Source of the DNA: an uncultured Myxococcales bacterium
Lineage (GTDB): Bacteria > Myxococcota_A > Bradymonadia > Bradymonadales > Bradymonadaceae
DNA length: 27,385 bases
NCBI GenBank assembly: GCA_913058025.1
Contig: CAJXPN010000001.1
Coordinates: 1-27,385, forward strand
Reading direction: 5' to 3'
How positions within the stretch are numbered: position 1 is the first letter of the stretch; each line of letters starts with the position of its first letter. Both the position numbers and the translations under genes were made by a program. Below the pieces are notes generated by a model that saw only the letters and a list, made by a program, of their open reading frames with translations, searched no databases and was not told where the DNA came from. Positions 1,289-14,421 of the stretch are shown piece by piece.

Positions 1289-4200
1289 TCAGAACCTCAC
1301 GGCCCAGCGTCGGCGCGCGAACACGCGCCAGCGGTCCGATCCCAGATCCTCATAGGTGAGCGCGTCGAAGTCGAAGTCGTCGATGCTCGCCGAGGTCACC
1401 CTCATGAAGAGGCGCTGGGCAGGGTAGGGGACGGGGCGCTCTGCGGCCGGGAGCCCCGAGAAGTCCGGGAACTCGGGCAGGCGCACCGACGTCTGGGTCC
1501 CCGGGACGATCGCGGTCCAGACGGGGAGCCCGAGCTCGTTCGTGAGCACCAGGAAGGTCACGTCGGGGTAGTACGGGCCGTCGGCCTGCCAGCGGATCTC
1601 GTTGTCCACGACGAACAGGTCGGGCAGCGGGCGCACCGGCTCGGGCACGTCGAGCAGCGGCCCGAGCTCGACCACCTGAGACATGTCCGAGATGCCCGTG
1701 ACGCTCGTCTGCGTGAGCGGCTCGTATTGTCCCGTGTAGGACCCCCCGATGAGCGTCACCGTGACGTCGGCGAGCAGCCCAGTGAGCGCGGGTTGTCCGG
1801 TGATCGAGAGCAGCGAGCTCAGCCCGGAGGCGCCCGTCGGTGAGGGGAAGACCCCCTCGAAGCCGAAGTCCCAGAACGCGCGCACTCTGTTGTTGTCGGG
1901 TCCCAGCGGGTTGTAGATGGGGTTGATGAGCTTGACGTCGAGCTGCTCCTCGAGCGGTATGTCGCACTCGAGGTCGACCTCGTACTCGCCGCGGTCGCTG
2001 ATGAACAGGAAGCGCTCGACGGCCATGTATTGAGGCGCGAAGGAGTCGGTGTCCTCATCGTACACGCCACACATCGCCACGACCGCGAGGTCGCCGATCC
2101 TCGTGTTGATCTCGTAGTCGCCTTCACCCAGGACGACGGACCCGGGCCCCGGATCGGGCGTCCCACCGAACACGCTCGACTGCGTCGTGCGCACGATGAC
2201 CATGTCGTAGGTGCGCGCGTCCGAGGGGTCGGACAGCTTGCCAGGCGTCGTGACCACGCCGCGCACGATGCCGAACGGTGGAGGGTCGCCGCCGCCGCCG
2301 CCGCCACCCGGGCTGGGGGGCGGTGGCTCGGTCGGGTTCAGGAAGATCGTGATGTCCTCGGCGTCGATCGCCTGGATGAGCGCCGACGAGAAGCCCGCTG
2401 CCGTCGCCGTGACCGTCTGCGCGCCCAGCACGTCCGCGCCGGAGAGCGTGATCTGGCCGTTGACGTCCGTGAACCCCTGGTACTGGGTGTCGGGGCGCGT
2501 CGAGAGCATCACGAACGCGCCCGGGAGCGCGGCGCCGCCTGCGTCGAACACCGAGACGTTCACCGCGCCGTCGATCGGCGCGCCCGAGGCGCCGCCGAAC
2601 CTCGAAGCGGGGTTGTAGTACTCGAAGTCGTACGGCGCGAGCGCGCGCCGCGCGCCCTCGACGACCTCCACGCCAGCCTCTCCCGCCGCGCCAGCGGGGG
2701 TCCTGAACGTGAGGTTGTTGCGGTCGAGCCTGCGCAGGCTCGAGCCTCGCCTTCCGCCCACGAGCGCCTCGAGCGCGCCGTAGAAGCCTCGGCCCCGGAT
2801 CGTCACGAACGTGCCCCCCGAGATCGCGCCACGCACGGGCGTGTACCCCCAGATCTCGAGCGGCTCGGTGTAGGTGTAGCCGTCGACGAGGAGGCCGCGC
2901 GCGCCGTCGGCGCGCACCTCGACGTCCACCTCGCCAGCTCCATGGGCAGGCGCGATCACGTCGATCTCGGTGTCCGACAGGACCGTGAACGCGGCGGGCA
3001 CGCTGCCGAAGAGGACCTCCTCGGCGCCAGTGAACCCCTCGCCCTGTAGCCGGATCGCCTCTCCCCCGGCGACGTCTCCCTCGCTCGGGCTGAGGCCGTC
3101 GATCCACACGGTCGCGACGTACTCGTAGCCGTCGTCGAGCCGGGCGAGCTCGGCCGCGCCGTCGAACAACGTAACGTCTGCCAACCCGAGCGCGCCCGCT
3201 GGCGTGCGCACGACGGCGTGGGTCGGCCCCGACTCGATGACCGTGGCGTCCGACCCCTCGAACGCGATCCTCGCGTTCGGAGCGTCGAGGCCGAAGCCGA
3301 CCACGCGCGCGGTCGCGCCTCCCTCATCGGGCCCCGAGCCCGGCGTCACGCCGAGGAGCTGGGGCGAATCGTCTGCGCGGTAGTAGAACGCCTCCGCTGC
3401 GAACGCGGCCTCACCCCCGGCCTCGATGAGCACGTCCGCCGCGCCCACGGCCCCCGCGGGCGTGCGCACCGTCACGGTGTCCGCAACGGGGTCCACCGAG
3501 ACGACCTCGGCCTGGGCTCCGCCGATGCGCACGGTCGCGCCGACGGTGACGCCTGGCGCCTCGATCACCACGGTCTCACCGCCCGCCGCGAGGCCGCTCG
3601 CGGGCGTGATCGCGCCGACAGTCAGCGGCGAGTAGTACGTCACCGCGTCCTCGGCCACCGCGCCACCGCGGCGCGTCGTGACGCGCACGTCGACCACGCC
3701 CTCGGCGCGCGGCGGCGCGAGCGCGCGGGCGGTCTCACCGTCGATGAAGATCACGCGAAGCGCGCCCTCGCCGCCCACGCTCACGGCCATCTCGGGGGAG
3801 AATCCTTCGCCACGCAGTGACAGCTCGACGCCACCAGAGGTCGGCACGCGCGCGGGCGTCACCGATGTCAGGCGCAGCCCGTTCGTGTACGTGAACCCAT
3901 CAGGCAGCGCGACCACGCGCCCGTCCGGGTGGATCGCCTTCACGGTCACGGGGCCAGAGCCCAGAGCAGGGGGGGTGTCGCCCACGAGCCCCGCGCCGCC
4001 AGGGACGACGTCCATGAGCGCGCTGCCGAGGAACACCCTGGTGCCCTCGACGAGGCCTTCTCCAGAGATCCTCACACGCGATCCGCCCTCGACGGGTCCC
4101 GTCGGGGGCACGATCGCCGTGAGCGTGAACGCGTCTGGATCGATGGGGCCGGTGTCTTCCTCGACGGGGTCCGCGTCGGGCGCGGCGTCGGCACCCGCGT

Positions 4201-4435
4201 CCTCGACCACGAGGTCCGCGTCGTCTCCGGAGTCGACGCCTGCGTCCTGGGGAGTTGGCCCTGTGTCCGGGGCGGCTGAGTCCACGCCTGGGTTTGCGTC
4301 GACGATCGAGACGTCGGGGCCTGCGTCCGTGCCCTCCTCGGTCGTGTCGTCACTGCACGCGGGAGCGAGCAGCGCGAGCGCGAGCGCCCACGTGGTCACG
4401 ACCGCTCGTCTGCTGCTCGTCTGGTCGTCGCGCAC
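1289..4435 (-). CDS. Large surface/outer-membrane lipoprotein with six IPT/TIG domains, a carboxypeptidase-regulatory-like beta-sandwich and an unknown C-terminal region (paralog A, 1048 aa)
   Basis: GGAGGAG RBS before GTG; lipobox LAPA|C (Cys27); acidic DAG/DTG-rich stalk. Six repeats start FTLTAIVPPTGPVEGG, LRLTSVTPARVPTSGG, LTVGAITPASGLAAGG, PQLLGVTPGSGPDEGG, VWIDGLSPSEGDVAGG and LEIWGYTPVRGAISGG, and most end in F/Y-x-Y (approx. 2610-4130). Confidence 0.88.
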   Translation of the reverse strand: MRDDQTSSRRAVVTTWALALALLAPACSDDTTEEGTDAGPDVSIVDANPGVDSAAPDTGPTPQDAGVDSGDDADLVVEDAGADAAPDADPVEEDTGPIDPDAFTLTAIVPPTGPVEGGSRVRISGEGLVEGTRVFLGSALMDVVPGGAGLVGDTPPALGSGPVTVKAIHPDGRVVALPDGFTYTNGLRLTSVTPARVPTSGGVELSLRGEGFSPEMAVSVGGEGALRVIFIDGETARALAPPRAEGVVDVRVTTRRGGAVAEDAVTYYSPLTVGAITPASGLAAGGETVVIEAPGVTVGATVRIGGAQAEVVSVDPVADTVTVRTPAGAVGAADVLIEAGGEAAFAAEAFYYRADDSPQLLGVTPGSGPDEGGATARVVGFGLDAPNARIAFEGSDATVIESGPTHAVVRTPAGALGLADVTLFDGAAELARLDDGYEYVATVWIDGLSPSEGDVAGGEAIRLQGEGFTGAEEVLFGSVPAAFTVLSDTEIDVIAPAHGAGEVDVEVRADGARGLLVDGYTYTEPLEIWGYTPVRGAISGGTFVTIRGRGFYGALEALVGGRRGSSLRRLDRNNLTFRTPAGAAGEAGVEVVEGARRALAPYDFEYYNPASRFGGASGAPIDGAVNVSVFDAGGAALPGAFVMLSTRPDTQYQGFTDVNGQITLSGADVLGAQTVTATAAGFSSALIQAIDAEDITIFLNPTEPPPPSPGGGGGGGDPPPFGIVRGVVTTPGKLSDPSDARTYDMVIVRTTQSSVFGGTPDPGPGSVVLGEGDYEINTRIGDLAVVAMCGVYDEDTDSFAPQYMAVERFLFISDRGEYEVDLECDIPLEEQLDVKLINPIYNPLGPDNNRVRAFWDFGFEGVFPSPTGASGLSSLLSITGQPALTGLLADVTVTLIGGSYTGQYEPLTQTSVTGISDMSQVVELGPLLDVPEPVRPLPDLFVVDNEIRWQADGPYYPDVTFLVLTNELGLPVWTAIVPGTQTSVRLPEFPDFSGLPAAERPVPYPAQRLFMRVTSASIDDFDFDALTYEDLGSDRWRVFARRRWAVRF
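2475..2519. repeat. 45-bp exact direct repeat shared by the two IPT/TIG paralogs (copy 1)
   Basis: ccctggtactgggtgtcggggcgcgtcgagagcatcacgaacgcg occurs at 2475-2519 and 5691-5735. Confidence 0.92.
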
Positions 4436-4492: not shown

Positions 4493-7400
4493 TCACAGCT
4501 GGATGAATCGCACCGCCAGCGAGTACGCGTCCCAGTTCGCCGGGTCGAGGTCGCCGTACGTGAAGTTGTTCACGTCCACGCCGGGCTTCTCGATCGCGTA
4601 GATGACCACGGGGGTCGAGATGCCCTTGAAGGGGGCAGGGCGGTCCTCCTCGGGCAACGCCGAGAAGTCCGGGAACTGCGGGATGCGCACGCTGCGGGCC
4701 GAGCCCGGCAGGAAGACGTCCCAGTAGGGCACGGGGCCGGCGATCGTGAGCTCGAGGATCTGCACCTGGAACATGTCCGGCTGGCGCGACGAGTTGTAGT
4801 TGAAGCTCACCAGGCCGTTCGTGGGCGAGGCGCCCTGGGCCGGGGCGGTGAACTCGGCCACACCGAGCAGACCAGGCAGCTCCACGAGCCCCGACGTGTC
4901 CGTCACGCCGCGCTTGAATCCGATCGAGAGCGGGTAGCCCGCCCCCTGCGCCGTGAGCGTCTGCGCGCCACCCTCGACGTCGTACTGGACGTCGGCGAGG
5001 TCGCCCGCCAGCGAGGGCAGGCTAGTCACCGTCACGAGGTTCGCGCCGCCGGGGCCCTTCGTGTTCCCGAGCTCACCGAAGACGCCGTCGAAGCCCATGT
5101 CCATCCACGGCTTGACGTAGGTCTCGTTCGGACCGACCACCGCGTCGAACGGCGTGTCGTTCATCTTCACGACCATCGTCTGGTCGAGCGGGATGTCGAG
5201 CTCCAGGTCGATCTGGTAGGTCTGCCCCTCCGAGGCCGTCAGGTAACGCTTCACGCCCATGGCGATGGGGGTGAACGTCCCGTCACGGTTGTCGTAGATC
5301 CCGCCGAGCACCACGATGGCGAGGTCGCCCAGGCGCGACGTGATCGCGTAGTCACCGTCGGCCAGGAGCACCGCGTCGGGGCCAGGGGCGGGGTTCTCGT
5401 TCCCCTGGCTCGCCTGGGTCGTGTAGACGTAGGCGATCTTGAACTGAGAGGCGCCCGGCTCGGCGAGCTTATTGAGGCCCTTGAGCGAGCCCTCGAAGCG
5501 CGCCGGCGCAGGAGGCGTGGGCGGCTCACCCTGAGACGGCGGGACCTCCGGCTGGAGGAACACCGTCACGTTCTCCGCGTCCACGCTCTGGACCGTCGAG
5601 GACGAGTGGCCCGCCGCGATCGCGGTGATCGTCTGCGCGCCGTAGACCTCGGGGCCCGACAGCGTGATCATCCCGTTGACGTCGGTGTAGCCCTGGTACT
5701 GGGTGTCGGGGCGCGTCGAGAGCATCACGAACGCGGTCTCGATGGGCGTGCCCGCGTACGAGTACACCGTCACGTTGACCGAGCCGCGGATCGCGCCGCC
5801 CCAGGAGCCACCGAAGCGCGCGCCCGGGTTGAAGTAGGAGAATTGCTCGGGCGAGGTCTTCGACTCGGCGCCGTTCGTGACGACCACGTCGACCGCTCCC
5901 GTCACGCCGGGGGGCGTGCGCACCGAGAGCGTCTGAGCGTCGAGCACGCGGACCTCCGGTGCCTGTGTGCCGCCGAACGTCACGTCCACCGCGCCCACGA
6001 ACCCGCGCCCGCGAAGCTCCACGTAGGTCCCGCCAGCGATCGAGCCGCGCACCGGGAACATCCCGTACACGTCGAGCTGCTCGGTGTAGGTGAACCCGTC
6101 ACGGAACGTCGCCTTGATGGGGCCACGCTCGACCACCACGTCCACCACGCCCGCCGAGCGAGAGGGCGCCGTCGCCGTGATCTCGGTCGCCGAGTCCACC
6201 GCGAACGCCGCCGGCACTCCGCCGAACAGCACGCGCGTGGCGCCCGTGTAACCCTCTCCCTCGATGAGCACCTGCGCGCCGCCTGCGGCGTCCGCCGTGT
6301 TCGGGGTGATGCGATCGATCCAGATGTCCGAGACGTACTCGAACCCGCCCGCGAGCGTCGAGCTGTCCGCGCCCGCGTTCACCACGACGTCCACGACGCC
6401 GATCGCGCCGGCCGGCGTGCGCACCACCGCGCTGCCCGTGTCCTGCGACACGATCGTCGCCAGCGCCCCGCCGAAGCGGACCTCCAAGCCCGCGGCGTCC
6501 AGCCCCGCGCCCGTCAGCGTCACGTCCACGCCGCCCGAGATCGGGCCGACCTGCGGTGAGACCGCCGCGACCGCGATCCCCGAGCCGTCGTCGTAATAGA
6601 ACGCGTCCGGCGCGATCGTCGCCTCACCGCCCACGAGCACCACGCGCACGTCCGCCAGCCCGGCCGAGCCCGCAGGCGTCGTCACCTCGATCTCGTCGCC
6701 GGCCGGAGACACGGAGGTCACCGTCGCAGGCACGTTGTCGAACTCCACCGCCGCGTCCTGCTCGAAGCCCGAGCCTCGCACGACCACCGCGTCGCCTCCC
6801 GCGGCCACGCCCACCGCGGGCGACAGAGACGTGATCTCGAGCGGGGCGTAGTACGTCACCGCGTCGGGCAACGTCATCGTCGCGCTGGCGTTCGTGACGC
6901 GCGCGTCCGCATCGCCGACCTGGCCCGCAGGCGCCAACACACGCATCAACGTCGGGCTGAGCAGCTCGTGGCGAAGCGCCGTCTGGCCGCCCAGGCTGAG
7001 GCGCGTCTGCGCGTCGAAGCCTGCGCCCTGAATCGTCAGCTCCACGCCTCCCTGCACGGGAATGTTCCTGGGGGTCACGCTCGTGAGGCCCAGCGAGGCC
7101 GAATACGAGAAGCCTCCCGTGAGCGTGTCGTCCCCGTACTCCGGGTCCAACAGCTTCACGTCCACCGAGCCCGGCGCCACGCCCGCGGGCGTGGCGCCCA
7201 CCAGCGTGCCCTCGATCAACGCCACTTGCGCAGGCGCGCCGCCGAAGTACACCACCGTCGCGTCGGTGAACCCGACCCCGTCGATCACGAACGGAGTCCC
7301 CCCATCCACGGGGCCTCGCGGCGGCACGAGGGTGTCCACGCGCAGCTCCGTGACCTCGAGGTCCGGCTCGTCCCCCGTGTCGGGCTCTTCGACGCTTGCG

Positions 7401-7654
7401 TCGGCGTCCTCGCCACCTCCGGTGTCCGAGACGCCGCCGTCATCCCCCGGTCCAGTGTCCTCCTCGGGCGTCCCGAGGTCGGGCGCCGCGTCCGCGCCGC
7501 CCGCGTCGGTCGTGGCGTCCGCGAACGCCTGCTCGTCAGGCTGCTGGGGCTGGCGATCCGGGTCCCCCGTGCACGCCCACGCGAGCGTCGCGGACAGACA
7601 CATCGTGATCGTCGCGCGTGACGCGCTCTTAATCCTCACACGGGGTGATGGCAT
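4493..7654 (-). CDS. Large lipoprotein with six IPT/TIG domains (paralog B, about 1053 aa)
   Basis: The best start is ATG 7654 (AGGAG RBS upstream); the ORF track extends to 7696. Lipobox LAWA|C, acidic stalk, six (V/I)xPxxGxxxGG IPT repeats (approx. 5825-7350). Colinear with paralog A, e.g. the shared AFVMLSTRPDTQYQG. Confidence 0.88.
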   Translation of the reverse strand: MPSPRVRIKSASRATITMCLSATLAWACTGDPDRQPQQPDEQAFADATTDAGGADAAPDLGTPEEDTGPGDDGGVSDTGGGEDADASVEEPDTGDEPDLEVTELRVDTLVPPRGPVDGGTPFVIDGVGFTDATVVYFGGAPAQVALIEGTLVGATPAGVAPGSVDVKLLDPEYGDDTLTGGFSYSASLGLTSVTPRNIPVQGGVELTIQGAGFDAQTRLSLGGQTALRHELLSPTLMRVLAPAGQVGDADARVTNASATMTLPDAVTYYAPLEITSLSPAVGVAAGGDAVVVRGSGFEQDAAVEFDNVPATVTSVSPAGDEIEVTTPAGSAGLADVRVVLVGGEATIAPDAFYYDDGSGIAVAAVSPQVGPISGGVDVTLTGAGLDAAGLEVRFGGALATIVSQDTGSAVVRTPAGAIGVVDVVVNAGADSSTLAGGFEYVSDIWIDRITPNTADAAGGAQVLIEGEGYTGATRVLFGGVPAAFAVDSATEITATAPSRSAGVVDVVVERGPIKATFRDGFTYTEQLDVYGMFPVRGSIAGGTYVELRGRGFVGAVDVTFGGTQAPEVRVLDAQTLSVRTPPGVTGAVDVVVTNGAESKTSPEQFSYFNPGARFGGSWGGAIRGSVNVTVYSYAGTPIETAFVMLSTRPDTQYQGYTDVNGMITLSGPEVYGAQTITAIAAGHSSSTVQSVDAENVTVFLQPEVPPSQGEPPTPPAPARFEGSLKGLNKLAEPGASQFKIAYVYTTQASQGNENPAPGPDAVLLADGDYAITSRLGDLAIVVLGGIYDNRDGTFTPIAMGVKRYLTASEGQTYQIDLELDIPLDQTMVVKMNDTPFDAVVGPNETYVKPWMDMGFDGVFGELGNTKGPGGANLVTVTSLPSLAGDLADVQYDVEGGAQTLTAQGAGYPLSIGFKRGVTDTSGLVELPGLLGVAEFTAPAQGASPTNGLVSFNYNSSRQPDMFQVQILELTIAGPVPYWDVFLPGSARSVRIPQFPDFSALPEEDRPAPFKGISTPVVIYAIEKPGVDVNNFTYGDLDPANWDAYSLAVRFIQL
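5691..5735. repeat. 45-bp exact direct repeat shared by the two IPT/TIG paralogs (copy 2)
   Basis: Identical to 2475-2519; encodes AFVMLSTRPDTQYQG on the minus strand. Confidence 0.92.
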
Positions 7655-7736
7655 CGCTCTCTTCTCCTGTATCTCTTTCATGGCGCGCCGCGGCACTGTG
7701 GGCCACGCCGTCGCGTCGAGTCTCTCTTACGCGGTG

Positions 7737-7884: not shown

Positions 7885-9255
7885 TCAGTCCGTCGTGTTC
7901 GACGTCAGCGTCGTCATGCCTGTCTCCTCGTCGTACTTGACGTGGATCGTGAGGTGCTCCTTGCCCTTCGAGAAGTGCATCCAACGCGCGTTGCTGGGGA
8001 GGCCCTCGCCCTGGCTCTTGTACACCTGGCCGATGGTGTCGTGGATCTCGCTGAGCTTCCAACCCTTCCTGCTCAGGTCGTCGACGTAGTGCTCGATGAC
8101 CTGAACCGGTGAGCGCTTCACGCGCAGCACGTCCGAGGCGTAGTTGCTCTCGCGGCCGTTGCCCTTGAATGAGAGTGCGCGCTGGCACCCGTCGCACTTC
8201 TCGAACGCGCTGGTGCGCGCCGCCGAGTCCGGCAGGTCCTGAGAGCTGGCGAGCGAGAGGTCGAAGTCCTCGTCGCTCCACATCGCCGTGACCGCGCTCG
8301 AGCCGCTCTCCTTGTCGTAGAACGCCTCGATCTGGCGGACCGCGCGGATCCTGGACTCGAACTGCTCCGTGGACTCCTTGGCGAACTCCTGGAACAGCGT
8401 GTTGACCTGGGGGCAGCCGAGCAGCGACTTGTCCGCCTCGAAGATCGCCTTCATCGCGTCCATCTTGCGCGCCGTGTTCGCGTACGCGTCCTGCTCCTCG
8501 TTGCAGACCCCGCCCGAGCAGGTCGTCTTCTCCTGCTTGTCGAGCGCCATCCCGAGCTTCGTCGCGGCCTGCTGCATCTCGCCGTCGGCCTCGACCGCGC
8601 GCTCGACCTCCGTGTCGAAGTAGGTCTCGTCTCCGCCACAAGAGACGTAGGCAGTGCGGAACTTCTGGCCGTACTTCTCGAGCTTGGCCGTGCGCTGCGC
8701 CATCGTCTCCTTGAGCGCACCATCACCCTGCTCGGACGGGTGCGCGTACTCCGCGCCTCCCATCGACATGTAGTTGTTCGTGATCATCTGCGGCAGGATC
8801 TCTCCGTTCGCGGCGGCCTCGTACATCTCCTGGAGGTCCTCGGAGGGCTTCTCCTGGGAGTTCTCGTCGGCGAGCTCGTGCGCGAGCGCAGGGACGAGGT
8901 GTTGGCGGCTGTTGACGCCCTGCACGACGAACGCTTCCTGGTAGTCCTGGAGAAGATCCTCGGGGGTCTTGCCCATGACCTCTCGGGTCGAGAAGTAGAC
9001 CGTGTTTCCGTTGAAGTCGTAGACGCGCGGAGGCTCGTGACCCATCTTCTCCAGGGCCGCGGTGAACTTCTGCGTCGACGACCGGTCGGTCAGCTGAGTC
9101 GTCACGATGTCTGCGTGGCCCTCGCTCACCAGCGTGATTCCGTCGTCTTGCGACGACTCCTGGGGCGGGTTCAGCGTCAGAATCGCTCCCCCGGCGCCCG
9201 CGATCACGAGCATCGTCAAGCCGACCCTCGCTGCTCCTGTCATGAGTTCTCTCAT
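7885..9255 (-). CDS. Hypothetical exported/membrane-anchored protein, last gene of the Tad pseudopilin operon (about 456 aa)
   Basis: Long ORF with native codon usage; AGGAG RBS before ATG 9255 (alternative ATG 9276 overlaps the upstream stop); one N-terminal hydrophobic segment (VGLTMLVIAGAGGAILTL); 6 Cys; no recognisable catalytic motif. Confidence 0.8.
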   Translation of the reverse strand: MRELMTGAARVGLTMLVIAGAGGAILTLNPPQESSQDDGITLVSEGHADIVTTQLTDRSSTQKFTAALEKMGHEPPRVYDFNGNTVYFSTREVMGKTPEDLLQDYQEAFVVQGVNSRQHLVPALAHELADENSQEKPSEDLQEMYEAAANGEILPQMITNNYMSMGGAEYAHPSEQGDGALKETMAQRTAKLEKYGQKFRTAYVSCGGDETYFDTEVERAVEADGEMQQAATKLGMALDKQEKTTCSGGVCNEEQDAYANTARKMDAMKAIFEADKSLLGCPQVNTLFQEFAKESTEQFESRIRAVRQIEAFYDKESGSSAVTAMWSDEDFDLSLASSQDLPDSAARTSAFEKCDGCQRALSFKGNGRESNYASDVLRVKRSPVQVIEHYVDDLSRKGWKLSEIHDTIGQVYKSQGEGLPSNARWMHFSKGKEHLTIHVKYDEETGMTTLTSNTTD

Positions 9256-9269
9256 AGTCTGCTCCTGGG

Positions 9270-10067
9270 TCAGCATTTCCACGTCGCTTTCTTGACACCC
9301 AGGACATTGCCCAGGCAGGCGGACTCTTTCTGCGCCGGGATTCGCGAGAAGCCGACCGTCACCAACTCGTTGACGATGCTGCCTCCCACTCCAGCGGGCG
9401 AGACCATCACGTCGTAACCGTTCTCGTAGCTGTAGTTGAACCTGCCGATGCTGCCGCTTCGGGACGCGCTGCCCGCCGCGGTGCCGTAGCGAATGCCCGC
9501 ACCCTGCGCGTGGCGCGAGCCACCGATCGAGTAGGGAACCGACAGCGCGAACACCACGATTCGTCCGCTCGGGAACGGCAACGGATCAAAGATCTTCGAG
9601 TCCGACGTCATCTTCTTGGCGAAGTCCGCGCCCTCTTTGGGCACCGCGGGCGGGTTGCCCTTGGCGGCGCTCTTCCACCAACTCGCCGTACGCTCAGCCT
9701 GCTTCAGGTGGCCCTGGAACAGCCCGATCGATGAGAGCATCTGCGGGAGATCTCCTCCCGGGCTCGAGTGGCTCGAGATCTCCCCGAGCTCGTTCACTGC
9801 CGCCATGATCGGCATCGAGTGATCGAAACCTGGAAACATATCGTTCTTGGTGTTGTGCACCGGGATCGCTTCATTCCACGTCGCACGCACCGCGGCGAGC
9901 TTCGTACGCACGCTCTCCTTCTCCATCCTCGTCAGGCTCCCCACGCCCGCGAAGATGATGATGAACACCGGCAGCGTAATCACGAACTCCGTCAGAGACG
10001 TGCCGCGCTGATCACGATCGAACCCACGCAGTAACGAGAGCATTTTCTTCTTCATTTTCGTCCTCAT
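9270..10067 (-). CDS. TadE/TadG-like type IVc pseudopilin (minor pilin)
   Basis: Prepilin motif FDRDQRG|TSLTEFVITLPVFIIIFAGV with Glu at +5 and a hydrophobic alpha1; C-terminal Cys pair (ESAC...TWKC). The start could be 10067 or 10055. Confidence 0.85.
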   Translation of the reverse strand: MRTKMKKKMLSLLRGFDRDQRGTSLTEFVITLPVFIIIFAGVGSLTRMEKESVRTKLAAVRATWNEAIPVHNTKNDMFPGFDHSMPIMAAVNELGEISSHSSPGGDLPQMLSSIGLFQGHLKQAERTASWWKSAAKGNPPAVPKEGADFAKKMTSDSKIFDPLPFPSGRIVVFALSVPYSIGGSRHAQGAGIRYGTAAGSASRSGSIGRFNYSYENGYDVMVSPAGVGGSIVNELVTVGFSRIPAQKESACLGNVLGVKKATWKC

Positions 10068-10083
10068 CCTCGCCCTCGCGTGA

Positions 10084-11502
10084 TCACTTGTGGAGGCCAT
10101 CGTACAGGTACTTGCTGTCGCTGTTCCCGTGCTTGTTCTCGCTGTCCATCGCCTTGAACGCGTTGTTCGCGTGCATGTAGAGGTCCATGATGAAGTCCAT
10201 GCCCATCGCGTTGAAGTTCAGGCCCATCGGCCCCGACATGAACAGCATGTTGCTGCCGTTCTCGCCCGAGCCCCTGTTCGCCTTGAACATGTCCTCGAAC
10301 TTCACCGGGATCTTCTCGTTCGGGAGCACCACGGGGCGCAGCTTCCCTATCCAACCCGGGTGGAACATCCACATGTCGTGGTCGCCGTCCATGAGCGGGA
10401 GCGTCCAGGGCTTGTTGTTCTCCGGGAAGATGAACTCGCCTCGCGCCATCGCCCATGTCCCGCCCGAGGACTTGTACCCGAAGTAGGCTCCAGAGCGCCG
10501 ATCCACGGTCTGCTTCTTCATGTAGTTGTAGTTGTCGTTGAGCTTGTTCGCCATGTCCGGGTTGTAGCGGTACGTGAACATCATGTTCGACTTACGCATC
10601 AGGTCCCGGCCATCGTCGCCATCGGCGTCGTTGTACCAGGGCTTCATCTGCCTGGGCCCCAGGGCCCACATGAAGAGGCAGCCCATGTACGAGTAGGCGA
10701 TGCTCGCGACCTCGCGCGGGCCCTTCCTGGCCCACAGCGGCTTCGAGCTGCTCAGGCGCTTGTGCTCCTCGAAGTTCATCATCCACTCGAGCAGCGTGAT
10801 CGGCGTCGAGGGGTTGCTCCCGATCAGCGGGATGGGGTCCAGACAGACCTCCATCTTCCCGCCTTCCTTGAGCGGGAGCTCCGACTTGAACGAGGTCGTG
10901 TTCGGGTGCGGGTACGTTCCCACCATGTCCGAGCCGTTGCGCAGCGACCGCTGGAGCCCCTCGCCCATGGCCCAGAAACCCGAGTACGTCTTCATCGACT
11001 TCTGGTAGCTGTCCAGGTCCTTCAGGTTCTTGATGATCTTCGAACTCCCGAACATCCCGATGACGTACCTGATGTACTTGATGCCCGCGGTGATGGGCAC
11101 CAGCGACGCCCAGTTGCCCGAGCAGTTCAGGCACGCCGTCCAGCAGCCGCAGAACCAACCACAGCAGCAACGCGAGCACTGACCCGCCAGCCACCCCATG
11201 TACATGGGGTACTGGAACGCATACATGTTGTGGATGCCCGTCACCGTGCGCTTGCCGATGTTCGAGAACGCGATCGTGTTCATCGAACGCGCTCGCACCG
11301 ACACCTGACTGTACGCCCCTGTGTCGGCGGCCATCTGCGCGTCTATCTTGTCGCGCGCGGCCTCCCCCGAGTCGTAGATCAGCAGACCTATCATGAACAG
11401 AATCAGGATCGAGGCCATGCACAGCATCGCCACGGCACCTCCCTCATCCCTGTCGAAGCGACCGAGCGCGCCGAGCAATCTTTCCTGTAGTGACTGTATC
11501 AT
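10084..11502 (-). CDS. TadG-like (Tad domain) pilus-assembly/tip protein, 472 aa
   Basis: FDRDEGG|AVAMLCMASILILFMIGLLIYDSG...DAQMAADTGAYS...ARSMNTIAFSN is the typical Tad N-terminal pattern (G|hydrophobic helix, D-x-G, Q-x-A-A-D-x-A-A/G). Confidence 0.85.
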   Translation of the reverse strand: MIQSLQERLLGALGRFDRDEGGAVAMLCMASILILFMIGLLIYDSGEAARDKIDAQMAADTGAYSQVSVRARSMNTIAFSNIGKRTVTGIHNMYAFQYPMYMGWLAGQCSRCCCGWFCGCWTACLNCSGNWASLVPITAGIKYIRYVIGMFGSSKIIKNLKDLDSYQKSMKTYSGFWAMGEGLQRSLRNGSDMVGTYPHPNTTSFKSELPLKEGGKMEVCLDPIPLIGSNPSTPITLLEWMMNFEEHKRLSSSKPLWARKGPREVASIAYSYMGCLFMWALGPRQMKPWYNDADGDDGRDLMRKSNMMFTYRYNPDMANKLNDNYNYMKKQTVDRRSGAYFGYKSSGGTWAMARGEFIFPENNKPWTLPLMDGDHDMWMFHPGWIGKLRPVVLPNEKIPVKFEDMFKANRGSGENGSNMLFMSGPMGLNFNAMGMDFIMDLYMHANNAFKAMDSENKHGNSDSKYLYDGLHK

Positions 11503-11577: not shown

Positions 11578-12609
11578 TCAGTCCATCGTGGGATACTTGG
11601 GCAGCGTGAAGTTGCGCCGCATGACATGGTAGTTGCCGTAGGCGCCCGTGCCGTTGCCCCCGTAGCAACCACGCGCGCGCTTCTCGCCGAACATGTAACC
11701 GAACCAGGGGAACAGGATCGGGAAGAGGTACTCGAACTCGACACCCACACGGCCTCCCGTGTTCACGACCTTGTACTGCTGCTTGTCGAAGCACATGTAG
11801 GCCGCGGTCATCTTGCGCGAGGCCCTCTTCCACGCCGAGCCGCCCTGGTCGAACGCCACGCTGAACGCGGAGTCCTTGACGATGTTCCTCGAGACGTTGA
11901 GGTCGAACGAGGCCCACTGCGCCTGGTTCCACCGCTGGCCCTCGGGCAGGACGCCGAACTTGTTGAACGCTCCGGCCATCACCGATCGCACGCGGCGGAA
12001 GTCGTCGTTCGAGCCGTCCGACTCGACGCGGCCGATGTGGAACGCGTTGGGGGCCGTCGGCGCCATGACTATGGCGGAGGCCGTCTTGGCCCGCTCGCGC
12101 ACCGTGACGTCCCACGTCGCGCCAGAGGCCGGCGGCGCTCTGTCCAGCTCGGTCTCGGGATGCCAGATCTGCGCCGTCCTGGCGCCCTGGTAGACCGCGA
12201 TGTCGGCGAGCAGCGCGCCGATGTTGAGCAGCGAGAGCTGCGCGATCCCGCTCGTGAGTGAGAGGAAGGGCACCAGGACGATGAGCGTCTCCACCATCAC
12301 CGTGCCACGCGCCTTTCGGATCACGCGCTTCGCGCTCGTCCCCTTGCGCGCCTTCCACGACCGGTAGGCGAGCATACATGTCGCGTACACCCCCACGCCG
12401 ATGCCCACCTGGAGCGCGATCTTGGTCCACGACATCTCGAGTACGCCCGAACTCATCGCGTCCACGACCAGTGCGATCGTGAACCGGTCGAGCATCGGCG
12501 CGCTCACGAGCGCCACCACGAGCAGCGCGCCCAGGACGTGGAATACACCCTCGGCAGCCCACCCGAGCGCCCTGGAAGTCGTCCCTCTCTTCACCCTATC
12601 GACGTTCAT
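11578..12609 (-). CDS. TadE-like pseudopilin with a long N-terminal membrane extension (about 343 aa)
   Basis: Internal motif RKARG|TVMVETLIVLVPFL...LADIAVYQGARTA matches TadE (E5; A-x2-G-A-R). ATG 12609 has a GAGGTG RBS overlapping the upstream stop. The ORF-track extension to 12837 overlaps the upstream gene and is rejected. Confidence 0.8.
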   Translation of the reverse strand: MNVDRVKRGTTSRALGWAAEGVFHVLGALLVVALVSAPMLDRFTIALVVDAMSSGVLEMSWTKIALQVGIGVGVYATCMLAYRSWKARKGTSAKRVIRKARGTVMVETLIVLVPFLSLTSGIAQLSLLNIGALLADIAVYQGARTAQIWHPETELDRAPPASGATWDVTVRERAKTASAIVMAPTAPNAFHIGRVESDGSNDDFRRVRSVMAGAFNKFGVLPEGQRWNQAQWASFDLNVSRNIVKDSAFSVAFDQGGSAWKRASRKMTAAYMCFDKQQYKVVNTGGRVGVEFEYLFPILFPWFGYMFGEKRARGCYGGNGTGAYGNYHVMRRNFTLPKYPTMD

Positions 12610-12614
12610 TTCGC

Positions 12615-14129
12615 TCACCTCGGTGCCTTGCGCGAGCCGCGCTGCTTCGTGCTCATTTTGTTGAACTCTTTCATGGCGTCGCCCACCCCGGCCATCTTTT
12701 CGTCGTAGTCGGGGTGCTCGGCCCGCAGCGCTTCCATGTTCGCCGCGTTCTCCTTGCTCCCCTCCATCTTGAGCTGCATCTCCTGCATGCCCTCGTAACT
12801 CTTCTCCATCCTGCCCTTGCCTCCGCCATCGCCCCACTGCTGGTACTGCAGCTGAGCCATCCGAGCGTTGACCGCAGACTGCATCTTCCTCAGGTCCGAC
12901 GCGTTGTAGTTCGTCACGCCCTTGCCGCGGTTGGTGACGATGTGCTTGGAGAAGGCCTCGAGGTCACCCTTCGACACGGCGTCGGAGATCGAGCTCTTCC
13001 CGATCTGGTTGCCGAGCCTGGCGCGCTCGTCCTGGTCCACGGCCTGGAGCTTGGCCAGGTAGACCTGCAACTCGAGCACGGCCGTGTCGAGCTGCGCCTG
13101 GCACATCAAGCCGTCCAGGTCCGCCACGGTCCCGAGGTCCTCGCCCAACCTCGCGCAGACCTTGGCCAGCGAAGGCGTCGAGGTCTTGACCTCCGGGGTC
13201 AGGCACTCCTCATGCTCGGTGAGCACGTACCTGAGCACCTCCAGCGTCTCCGACGTCGCGCTGTCGTCGACCACCAGGGCGCACACCCTCTCGAGCGTCC
13301 CCCGCTTGATCGCGTCCGCGCCGAGGTCGAGCTGCTGGATCTGCTCCTTGGTGACCGTCGTGCGCAGACCGAAGCTCGCCGCGAGCAGCTCATCCTCGAC
13401 CCCGAGGGCGTAGATCGAGTCCTCGCTGGGCTCGATCCTCGTCCACATGACGACGCCCTTGCCGAGCTCGTCCACGAGCTGCTCCACGCAGCACGCCCGC
13501 GTCCCCTCATGCCCCGCGCCGAGCGCGCAGCCGAGGAGCATCGCGCCCTTGACGTCTCGCTTCACCTCGAGCTGCTTGAGCGAGTCGGCCTGCGTGCAGA
13601 CCGCCTCGTCCGTGCTCATCATCATGACCTGGTGCCACTGGTTGGCGAGCTGGCGAACCAGCTCGTCCATCTGCTCGTACTCCGGCGCCGAGGCCATACA
13701 CGCCGTCGCCATCGCGGGGCTCGTGTTCATCAGGCTGAAGACCTCGTCGACCTCCACGTTTGTGCGCAGCATCTTCCCGCACGCTTCCAGGCGCACTCCC
13801 TCGTCCTCGTCGTCCAGCGCCTTCTTGAGCGCCGGCCCCTCGGCCACCGCCCTGAGCATCTCGGTGCGCACCTGAGGCACGCTCCACACGCCCGGCACCA
13901 TCCCGATCACCACCGAGAGCATCACGACGCCCATCATCAGGCCCATGCCTCGCTCGTCGCTGCGCAGCGTCGGGCTCACCGCGAACGCCACTCCGATCAA
14001 CGCCGGACAGATCGCCACGAGCCCCACGATGAGGGGCTGCGTCGGCGGCATCCAGGCCTCGACCACGTACAGCATGAAGCCGATAGTGGCTGCGATTCCT
14101 GTGAATATGACGGCTGCGATTGCCTGCAT
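12615..14129 (-). CDS. Hypothetical membrane protein: three N-terminal TM helices plus a Cys-rich alpha-helical (HEAT-like) domain; first gene of the Tad pseudopilin operon (about 504 aa)
   Basis: Three hydrophobic segments in the first ~85 aa; LKKALDDEDEGVRLEAC resembles a HEAT/PBS-lyase repeat; 10 Cys in the soluble part; stop codon 5 nt before the tadE-like start. Confidence 0.75.
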   Translation of the reverse strand: MQAIAAVIFTGIAATIGFMLYVVEAWMPPTQPLIVGLVAICPALIGVAFAVSPTLRSDERGMGLMMGVVMLSVVIGMVPGVWSVPQVRTEMLRAVAEGPALKKALDDEDEGVRLEACGKMLRTNVEVDEVFSLMNTSPAMATACMASAPEYEQMDELVRQLANQWHQVMMMSTDEAVCTQADSLKQLEVKRDVKGAMLLGCALGAGHEGTRACCVEQLVDELGKGVVMWTRIEPSEDSIYALGVEDELLAASFGLRTTVTKEQIQQLDLGADAIKRGTLERVCALVVDDSATSETLEVLRYVLTEHEECLTPEVKTSTPSLAKVCARLGEDLGTVADLDGLMCQAQLDTAVLELQVYLAKLQAVDQDERARLGNQIGKSSISDAVSKGDLEAFSKHIVTNRGKGVTNYNASDLRKMQSAVNARMAQLQYQQWGDGGGKGRMEKSYEGMQEMQLKMEGSKENAANMEALRAEHPDYDEKMAGVGDAMKEFNKMSTKQRGSRKAPR

Positions 14130-14218
14130 GATTTCCACGCGAGAGTTTGCGTTCGGTGCTCGCAGAGGACTGCGGTACACACCCGATGACGGGAGAGTTG
14201 GGAGGGGAAGTCCCTACT

Positions 14219-14247
14219 AAACTACCGAATCACATGGGGGAAAACAA
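14219..14247 (-). promoter_or_regulatory. Candidate sigma70 promoter for the Tad pseudopilin operon
   Basis: Minus strand TTGTTT (14247-14242), 17 nt, TAGTTT (14224-14219), with an A/T-rich tract immediately upstream. It sits in the divergent intergenic region; the consensus match is only moderate. Confidence 0.4.
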
Positions 14248-14339
14248 TGAAAAATGGCGGCTTACGGGTCTCCTCGCGATCTCCCCGGAGGCGCGGCTTC
14301 AGGGGCACGTCATCGATCGGAGGACGATCGTCACTCCCT

Positions 14340-14367
14340 TTGACTCACCCATAACCGGCATGACAAT
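14340..14367 (+). promoter_or_regulatory. Candidate sigma70 promoter for mutS
   Basis: TTGACT (14340-14345), 16 nt, GACAAT (14362-14367), about 55 nt upstream of the mutS ATG. Confidence 0.42.
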
Positions 14368-14421
14368 CTTCCCGCGCTGTCCCCGCCCAACGCTCAACAA
14401 CCCCTGCGCCCACACGACGTC

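Follow-up and report, generated by a model that had tools for sequence, protein, structure and literature searches.

The stretch of DNA analysed here, referred to in its full length as the window, comprises 27,385 nucleotides of an uncultured Myxococcales bacterium of the Bradymonadaceae (assembly GCA_913058025.1, contig CAJXPN010000001.1, positions 1 to 27,385), and carries on its minus strand a gene for a TadE-like minor prepilin whose predicted cleavage motif, G102|TVMVE107, is reached only after a leader of 102 residues. This leader is laid out as a basic N-terminal tail, a first transmembrane segment (TM1), an acidic loop, a second transmembrane segment (TM2) and a basic linker, and is followed by the TadE-like pilin. 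The product is probably a KilL-type prepilin of the Tip of a Tad/Kil pilus, with a membrane hairpin that is removed by a prepilin peptidase of the A24 family. The family itself is known; its leader, a variant of the class III signal, is not described in the literature searched. The gene and its parts are listed here, with the basis of each assignment in brackets.

11578..12609, minus strand: whole gene, KilL-type (TadE-like) minor prepilin with a long leader, 343 amino acids plus stop codon (open reading frame and translation, homologues, family profile)
12616..12621, minus strand: Shine-Dalgarno-like GAGGTG, 6 nt 5' of the ATG and overlapping the stop codon of the upstream open reading frame (sequence and scan of candidate starts)
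12550..12609, minus strand: residues 1-20, basic cytoplasmic N-terminal tail (family mean of 3.1 Lys/Arg against 1.4 Asp/Glu)
12490..12549, minus strand: residues 21-40, TM1, with a nearly invariant His24 at its cytoplasmic end (hydropathy, conservation, predicted helix)
12421..12489, minus strand: residues 41-63, periplasmic loop with a short helix at 42-54, net acidic throughout the family (1.4 Lys/Arg against 2.8 Asp/Glu; structure model)
12364..12420, minus strand: residues 64-82, TM2, family motif (L)H-x-G-L-S-A-x-x-W (conservation, predicted helix 61-90, TM1-TM2 couplings)
12304..12363, minus strand: residues 83-102, basic cytoplasmic linker ending in R101-G102 and resembling an ordinary prepilin leader (6.7 Lys/Arg against 1.0 Asp/Glu)
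12235..12303, minus strand: residues 103-125, N-terminal half of the first helix (alpha1N) of the predicted mature pilin (TVMVE...), Glu107 at +5 (invariance of Glu107, PF07811 alignment)
11581..12234, minus strand: residues 126-343, remainder of alpha1 and periplasmic globular domain (AlphaFold2 model, structure neighbours)

Translation and conservation of the extension

The start codon, ATG at 12609..12607, lies 5 nt past the TGA (12617..12615) of an upstream open reading frame of 521 amino acids, and, together with the GAGGTG site, this agrees with the coupling to an upstream stop that had been proposed in a preliminary description of the sequence. Kyte-Doolittle values over 19 residues are 1.6-2.3 for residues 21-40 and 64-82, residues 82-102 contain nine Lys/Arg and zero Asp/Glu, and a third hydrophobic helix follows G102|TVMVE107, so that the two hydrophobic segments and the basic stretch reported there were recovered. 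Likewise, the motif junction given as 12304/12303 proved exact: the Gly102 codon occupies 12306..12304, and Thr103 begins at 12303. The codons of His24 and Glu107 lie at 12540..12538 and 12291..12289, respectively.

Several lines of evidence indicate that the extension is real, conserved and translated. GC content at third codon positions is 0.87 in codons 1-102 and 0.86 in the part preceding an internal ATG at 12375, compared to 0.92-0.94 in the neighbouring genes and to an overall GC content of 0.60 in intergenic 14181-14421, the single such stretch measured. A homologue with 82% identity, found on a 76-kb metagenome contig, aligns gap-free and in frame across the extension, and a second full-length homologue was found at 65% identity. 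For the pair with the 82%-identical gene, the ratio of nonsynonymous to synonymous substitution rates (dN/dS) is 0.45 in the extension versus 0.16-0.18 in the mature part, which indicates that the extension is constrained, though less so than the pilin proper. In homologues from 20 related genomes, a leader of 94-114 residues results in each case from an ATG, or once from a GTG, and public gene calls, made independently, adopt the long start.

These data bear directly on the alternative that translation begins internally, for example at ATG 12375, with the upstream frame open by chance or through mis-annotation, or with both forms being made. Such a start would give a textbook basic leader of 24 residues, and a weak G-rich stretch does precede it; the preliminary description, which had recorded no ribosome-binding site there, was thus right only in that there is no strong one. 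In addition, GTG and TTG codons are frequent within the hydrophobic segments of homologues. Nevertheless, Met79, the residue encoded by this ATG, is not kept in homologues, whereas the transmembrane segments, His24 and Trp75 are kept across 118 divergent family members; the coding signal and a dN/dS below 1 extend upstream of 12375; and AlphaFold2 confidence in the extension exceeds 90. ATG 12375 was therefore rejected as the start, and an internal start of any kind appears very improbable. In line with this, the homologues that the preliminary description had proposed to inspect all carried the extension, in every case examined, with no conserved internal start. Coding signal, dN/dS, homologue starts and the AlphaFold2 model thus argue jointly against a start near 12375 and against a family whose members lack the extension.

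The same leader is found throughout the family. When a family profile was scored against 1.84 billion representative proteins, 171 clusters (at 50% identity) matched at E<1e-30 and 203 at E<1e-10. Among the 150 clusters listed, 146 align with the profile right from their N-terminus, starting within profile positions 1-38; the few others resemble partial genes or proteins cut short by the gene call. Across 118 aligned family representatives, to which all conservation counts given here refer, the leader up to the aligned Gly measures 91-132 residues (median 103), and charged residues are nearly absent from both of its helices. Within it, His24 is conserved in 115/118, Trp75 in 112/118 and His or Gln at position 67 in 94/118. 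The window protein itself deviates from the TM2 family motif in having Q67 for H and Y75 for W. At the predicted site, Gly102 is present in 115/118 (Ala in the other three), Arg101 in 87/118 and Glu107 in 118/118. The most conserved region is alpha1N, with a mean pairwise identity of 0.56. Among paralogues the identity of the leader is low, yet His24 and Trp75 are fixed. On this alignment, the long leader is a family-wide trait, and not a peculiarity of the window gene.

By its MutS sequence, the source organism of the window falls among the Bradymonadaceae (Myxococcota). Full-length matches were found in 25 of the 26 Bradymonadaceae genomes sampled, with 2-6 per genome. The one genome in which neither the KilL-like family profile nor the leader profile found a match (G214) is 93% complete and in 10 contigs. 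Beyond the Bradymonadaceae, within the phylum, the family profile matches weakly and over the TadE-like part only. A profile built from the extension alone gave strong matches (E<=2e-5) solely at the N-termini of KilL-like genes, at about one per Tip cluster; a few weaker matches in Bradymonadaceae had E-values of 2.4e-4 to 6e-3 (for example G004:C159 and G002:C601, the latter an 84-residue frame). On the strong matches, the possibility that the hairpin occurs as a stand-alone protein or as a reused domain was rejected; all extension-only matches outside the Bradymonadaceae had E>=3.8e-4 and resembled hydrophobic noise.

Two other interpretations of the first hydrophobic segment were also discarded. 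At TM1, the window protein has a G-x3/4-E that could pass for another prepilin or Flp motif in degenerate form, but the alignment does not conserve it. A reading of TM1 as a cleavable Sec signal peptide is likewise disfavoured, as no AxA is conserved, the window protein has a Pro at the would-be +1 position and His24 is nearly invariant.

With respect to the pilin itself, the PF07811 (TadE) profile aligned end to end (profile positions 1-43) at residues 102-144 of the window protein, and PF07811 was matched by 75/118 family members at E<=0.01. By these matches the family belongs to the TadE-like proteins, with the window member itself below the threshold, and the earlier assignment as a TadE-like prepilin-type protein stands. 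An NCBIfam search of the window protein returned noise only. Prepilin leaders end in a Gly or Ala ahead of about 20 hydrophobic residues, often with Glu at +5, and the window family conforms to this. By contrast, the leader departs from the hydrophilic or neutral, wholly cytoplasmic form of the published definition, to which only about its last 20 residues conform (PMC10191384).

Predicted topology, cleavage and competing explanations

To complement the sequence comparisons, a structure was predicted with AlphaFold2 from the alignment of the 118 family members. The whole chain was modelled with a predicted local distance difference test score (pLDDT) of 89.3 and a predicted template-modelling score (pTM) of 0.79. 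Blocks covering residues 11-90 had a pLDDT of 91-96 (93-96 in the TM1 helix), and helices were predicted at 10-39, 42-54 and 61-90, followed by a 54-residue alpha1 (101-154). Linker residues 91-100 had a mean pLDDT of 61, the only other weak segment being residues 1-10 (mean 58, and low for 1-4). The globular part was modelled as helices and a beta sheet, with strands at 280-337. Structure neighbours in the Atlas were TadE-family and PilV-type proteins, at template-modelling scores of 0.54-0.64 by the smaller partner, while no PDB entry matched the fold of the model at E<=0.001. A construct of residues 1-156 was predicted at a pLDDT of 91.2 and a pTM of 0.62.

The distribution of charge fits the positive-inside rule, with the N-terminal tail inside, the loop outside and the linker inside, and this topology would place the G|xxxxE site at the cytoplasmic face of the membrane, which is where prepilin peptidases act (PMC10191384). 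The genome encodes a 200-residue A24 peptidase (PF01478, 63 bits) of the Tad type, with no methylase domain, as well as a second PF01478 match.

To assess contacts within the precursor, direct-coupling analysis was applied to the alignment of residues 1-156 (~117 sequences). The strongest pair joined leader residue 67 with alpha1 residue 129, both of which lie near the periplasmic face by the predicted topology. N129 accompanies His or Gln at position 67 in 86/94 members, and a hydrophobic residue at 67 in 4/24. Couplings between TM1 and TM2, including 24-75, fit an antiparallel register. These results are suggestive of a precursor in which, prior to any cleavage, the hairpin lies packed on the alpha1 of the same chain.

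The evidence can be brought together in the following proposal. The precursor would be an inner-membrane protein with three transmembrane helices, in which the N-terminal tail is cytoplasmic, TM1 runs outward, a short periplasmic loop follows and TM2 runs back inward; the basic cytoplasmic linker would then lead into an outward alpha1N, with the globular domain in the periplasm. Since the number of extra helices is even, the chain would return to the cytoplasm and present R-G|T-V-M-V-E where A24 peptidases cut. A Tad-type peptidase would cut after Gly102 and free a mature pilin of 241 residues, the alpha1N of which would bundle with those of its TadG-like and TadE-like neighbours to form the Tip, while the 102-residue hairpin would remain in the membrane. 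As long as it is still attached, the hairpin is probably packed on alpha1 and would serve as a tethered pro-region in the membrane, by which the subunit is held or presented until it is processed. A tethered pro-region is favoured because the hairpin is confined to one of the three Tip pilins and because extension-only matches number about one per Tip cluster.

A number of points weigh against this proposal. Cleavage after Gly102 is predicted from the sequence only. We know of no A24 peptidase that processes a substrate with a membrane-embedded leader, and the hairpin could block access to the active site. The +6 position is a Thr, where Phe or Tyr is usual in Tad pilins. The PF07811 score of the window protein, 15.5 bits (20.3 in the genome scan), is below the 22.9-bit cut-off. 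With regard to packing, independent contrasts for the 67-129 pair, computed on a tree built without those columns, gave 4-5 changes in the same direction, none in the opposite direction and 4-5 unchanged, which is not significant (p ~0.06).

In an alternative explanation, the protein is never cut and remains in the inner membrane with three helices, the third of which only looks like a pilin alpha1N; without entering the filament, it would provide the two remaining Tip pilins with a fixed base, an anchor or a platform for nucleation. A hairpin that is strongly conserved (His24, Trp75) and confidently folded would suit a permanent structural part, as would the possible packing of TM2 on alpha1, and the literature searched offers no precedent for an A24 substrate with a membrane-embedded leader. 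However, the universal Gly or Ala at -1, the invariant Glu at +5, the Arg at -2 in 87 of the 118 representatives and the basic, poorly ordered linker are hard to explain without processing or filament-type contacts. In addition, conservation is highest in alpha1N, a bundle of free alpha1N helices is needed in the published Tip models (PMC12075869), and the extension evolves faster than the mature part, as pro-regions usually do. The sequence evidence thus favours cleavage over a tethered pilin with three transmembrane helices, with the Glu at +5, the Gly or Ala at -1, the linker and the Tad-type A24 peptidase as its main elements, and we regard an uncleaved platform as improbable.

A different possibility accepts cleavage and gives the released two-helix hairpin a job of its own in the choice of the paralogous Tip to be loaded onto the single machine, in recruitment of a dedicated peptidase or as a signal that a Tip has been consumed. 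The existence of 2-6 paralogous Tip clusters per genome, each with a diverged leader in which His24 and Trp75 are nevertheless fixed, would be compatible with such a role, as would the report that KilA serves only some Myxococcus Tips (PMC12075869). The case is, however, purely inferential: the extension-only profile search recovered no stand-alone hairpin copies and no partner gene, and a dN/dS of 0.45 speaks for moderate constraint only. This makes it, to our minds, less probable still than the uncleaved platform. The pro-region proposal also has a more far-reaching form, in which A24 peptidases cut inside a polytopic protein and the hairpin clamps alpha1 (through H/Q67-N129 and H24-W75), persists after cleavage and gates the loading of interchangeable Tips; taken as a whole, this form is doubtful.

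The Tip module and the Kil predation pilus

The gene is followed by three genes and preceded by one in what appears to be a five-gene operon, the other members of which are listed here.

12615..14180, minus strand: upstream gene, first of the operon, 521 amino acids, several N-terminal transmembrane helices, no family match
10084..11502, minus strand: next gene, TadG-like (KilN-position) minor pilin, 472 amino acids, short leader (PF13400, 24.2 bits, above the cut-off)
9270..10100, minus strand: third gene, TadE-like (KilM-position) minor pilin, G|TSLTE, short leader (weak PF07811 match from residue 33)
7885..9282, minus strand: fourth gene, 465 amino acids, membrane-anchored (no Pfam or NCBIfam match)

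As the preliminary description had stated, the two neighbouring pilin-like genes have ordinary short leaders. The longest open reading frame of the third gene overlaps the stop of the TadG-like gene by 17 nt and implies a leader of 33 residues (~266-276 residues in all). A close homologue is called 10 residues shorter (266 residues, leader ~22 residues), so that the true start of the third gene is probably an internal Met.

In the complete 5.05-Mb genome of Bradymonas sediminis (G016), all four clusters have the same order, with the KilL-like gene first and then a TadG-like gene, a TadE-like gene and a gene of ~450 codons. Two Tip-type clusters with this pattern lie ~5 kb apart on contig C5 of the window genome (G000:C5:4929-15342, L119), and in both the first gene is KilL-like and has a long leader; at the threshold used, the second cluster yielded no TadE-like gene. 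All PF07811 matches in the B. sediminis genome and in the window's genome lie in Tip-type clusters. A tblastn match to the fourth gene follows each KilL-like/TadG-like pair examined (four in B. sediminis, two on G000:C5), so that a fourth conserved gene, as yet unnamed, seems to belong to the Tip module of the Bradymonadaceae; its product could be a tip-associated effector or an assembly factor. The upstream gene of 521 codons is kept at orthologous loci (56% identity on the close metagenome contig, 24% in B. sediminis) and is absent from paralogous Tip clusters.

Transcript data from B. sediminis are consistent with a five-gene operon. In four RNA-seq runs, the upstream gene through to the TadG-like gene was found on single assembled contigs of 6.8-11 kb; in two of these runs the contigs begin 49-73 nt before the queried stretch, which by arithmetic from the tblastn match is approximately the start of the upstream gene. 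As assembler contigs, for which carry-over of DNA is possible, they are uninformative on the start site.

Directly downstream of the Tip operon, at 1289..4435 and 4493..7696 (both minus strand), lie two paralogues of ~1050 residues with six IPT/TIG repeats each. They are syntenic in the contig that carries the 82%-identical homologue (L101), and may be surface proteins tied to the Tip module.

In Myxococcus, the Kil (Tad-like) predation pilus bears at its end a Tip, a KilL-KilN-KilM heterotrimer that exists in interchangeable versions; the Tip primes and caps the pilus, Tip models require a free alpha1N bundle, and a dedicated short peptidase, KilA, serves only some of the Tips (Herrou et al. 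2025, PMC12075869). The same study modelled four B. sediminis Tips. The best B. sediminis orthologue of the window protein, at 39% identity, is DN745_18665, and the 16 residues after the Gly of this orthologue are those with which chain A of the model DN745_18665_18670_18675 opens. Because chain A begins after the Gly, published work already treats the family as a Tip pilin that is cut at the position of Gly102. With locus-tag spacing and gene count assumed, the four locus positions in the B. sediminis genome presumably fit the four DN745 cluster numbers. Leader regions were removed for modelling: the deposited Tip models lack them, chain A of the published Tip4 model begins AATVEFALS, and the supplementary legends mention leaders only as having been removed, while neither 'transmembrane' nor 'N-terminal extension' occurs in the main text (PMC12075869).

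The window gene thus lies in a kilL-kilN-kilM-type cluster and is orthologous to a protein in a published Tip model, and by these two features it belongs to the published KilL/KilN/KilM Tip class. Like M. xanthus KilL1-4 and the B. sediminis Tips, it has several paralogous clusters per genome, and the order kilL4-kilN4-kilM4 corresponds to L-like, TadG-like and TadE-like. The Bradymonadaceae module differs in its additional fourth conserved gene, and the Bradymonadaceae family profiles fail to reach most other Myxococcota families.

Other long leaders and implications of the KilL-type leader

The weak matches elsewhere in the phylum were inspected as well. In two other Myxococcota families, f14 and f46 (L104, L106, L112, L103, L105, L107), the leader also contains two hydrophobic segments and a basic stretch. 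Their TadE domain scores 34-40 bits and begins 106-125 residues into the open frame, ~100 residues past an ATG (the ATG being shown for f14); the site reads G|QAMTE or G|QAITE, and a PF13400 (TadG-like) gene comes directly next. With the extension-only profile, these leaders have no detectable homology to the Bradymonadaceae leader, so that the two-helix leader may be either an old trait that has diverged or a product of convergence. In family f3, relatives have ordinary leaders of 13-14 residues.

As a control, the 30 best PF07811 loci across the phylum were inspected, one per genome. An ATG lies 5-22 residues before the Gly in 23 of the 30. Six of the remaining seven have GTG or TTG candidates only, from 7 to 98 residues away, and the seventh is the f14 case. 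The upstream frame contains no hydrophobic segment in 27 of the 30 loci; among the exceptions, the f14 KilL-like gene is clear and two are ambiguous, one with a Tad-like N-terminus in frame and the other with a single, far-upstream hydrophobic segment. At locus L143 (G092:C95:13942-14070, family f16), a canonical TadE domain has a TadG/Tad-type N-terminus in frame upstream (...QQRG, with a hydrophobic run ending VDLG), which could reflect a fusion or the decay of a pilin gene upstream; alternatively, the gene could have a short leader and an upstream frame that is open.

The long leaders of type IVb pilins and of the Streptococcus sanguinis major pilins measure only ~15-30 residues and are wholly cytoplasmic. 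Like the KilL-type leader, these exceed the classical 5-7 residues and end in a Gly before alpha1N; unlike it, none is described as membrane-spanning (PMC10191384). No long or membrane-spanning prepilin leader in bacteria was found in the literature searched, which does not cover all journals. The TadE and TadF pseudopilins of Aggregatibacter actinomycetemcomitans, reported to be processed by TadV (Tomich et al. 2006, as cited in PMC10191384), share with the window family a G/XXXXE motif followed by a hydrophobic helix, and an adjoining TadG-type gene. They differ in that their canonical leaders are short and hydrophilic, whereas those of the window family have 91-132 residues with two transmembrane segments, and the +6 residue is Thr, not Phe.

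Within the literature searched, the nearest analogue is mitochondrial pre-GspG, a pseudopilin of the T2SS-derived system of eukaryotes. Its N-terminal extension, large and non-homologous, is presumed to be taken off so that a mature pilin of the bacterial type remains; there, however, the extension directs import and sorting in a eukaryote, a prepilin peptidase is absent, and lineage and purpose are unrelated (PMC10128026). Tip minor pilins with an extra module are also known, namely S. sanguinis PilB and PilC, Caulobacter CpaL and TadG (PMC12075869; bioRxiv 10.1101/2025.02.12.637803). In these, the module is C-terminal and surface-exposed and travels with the pilus, whereas the additional part of the window protein is N-terminal and membrane-embedded, and lies before the cleavage site.

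The class III signal peptide is defined by a short, hydrophilic, cytoplasmic leader (PMC10191384), and the KilL-type leader is a large conserved exception to this, predicted to be a folded two-helix membrane domain on exactly one of three Tip subunits. Gene finders and pilin predictors that look for the motif no more than ~30 residues from the start would miss or truncate KilL-type proteins, and a few public gene calls of the KilL-like family are already truncated. Leader-based pilin finders are likewise expected to assume a short, hydrophilic, cytoplasmic leader. A24 prepilin peptidases are GxGD aspartyl proteases related to presenilin, and if the KilL-type leader is indeed cleaved, the range of substrates of prepilin peptidases would widen and the assembly of Tad/Kil tips would include a pro-region step. 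Should the hairpin in addition gate the loading of Tips, it would be a membrane-embedded pro-domain and checkpoint of a sort not known from any type IV filament. The Tip pilus serves predatory bacteria in prey killing, and cleavage of the leader would also offer a handle on the question, raised in Myxococcus, of how several interchangeable Tips mature, how one is chosen among them, and why KilA acts on some but not all.

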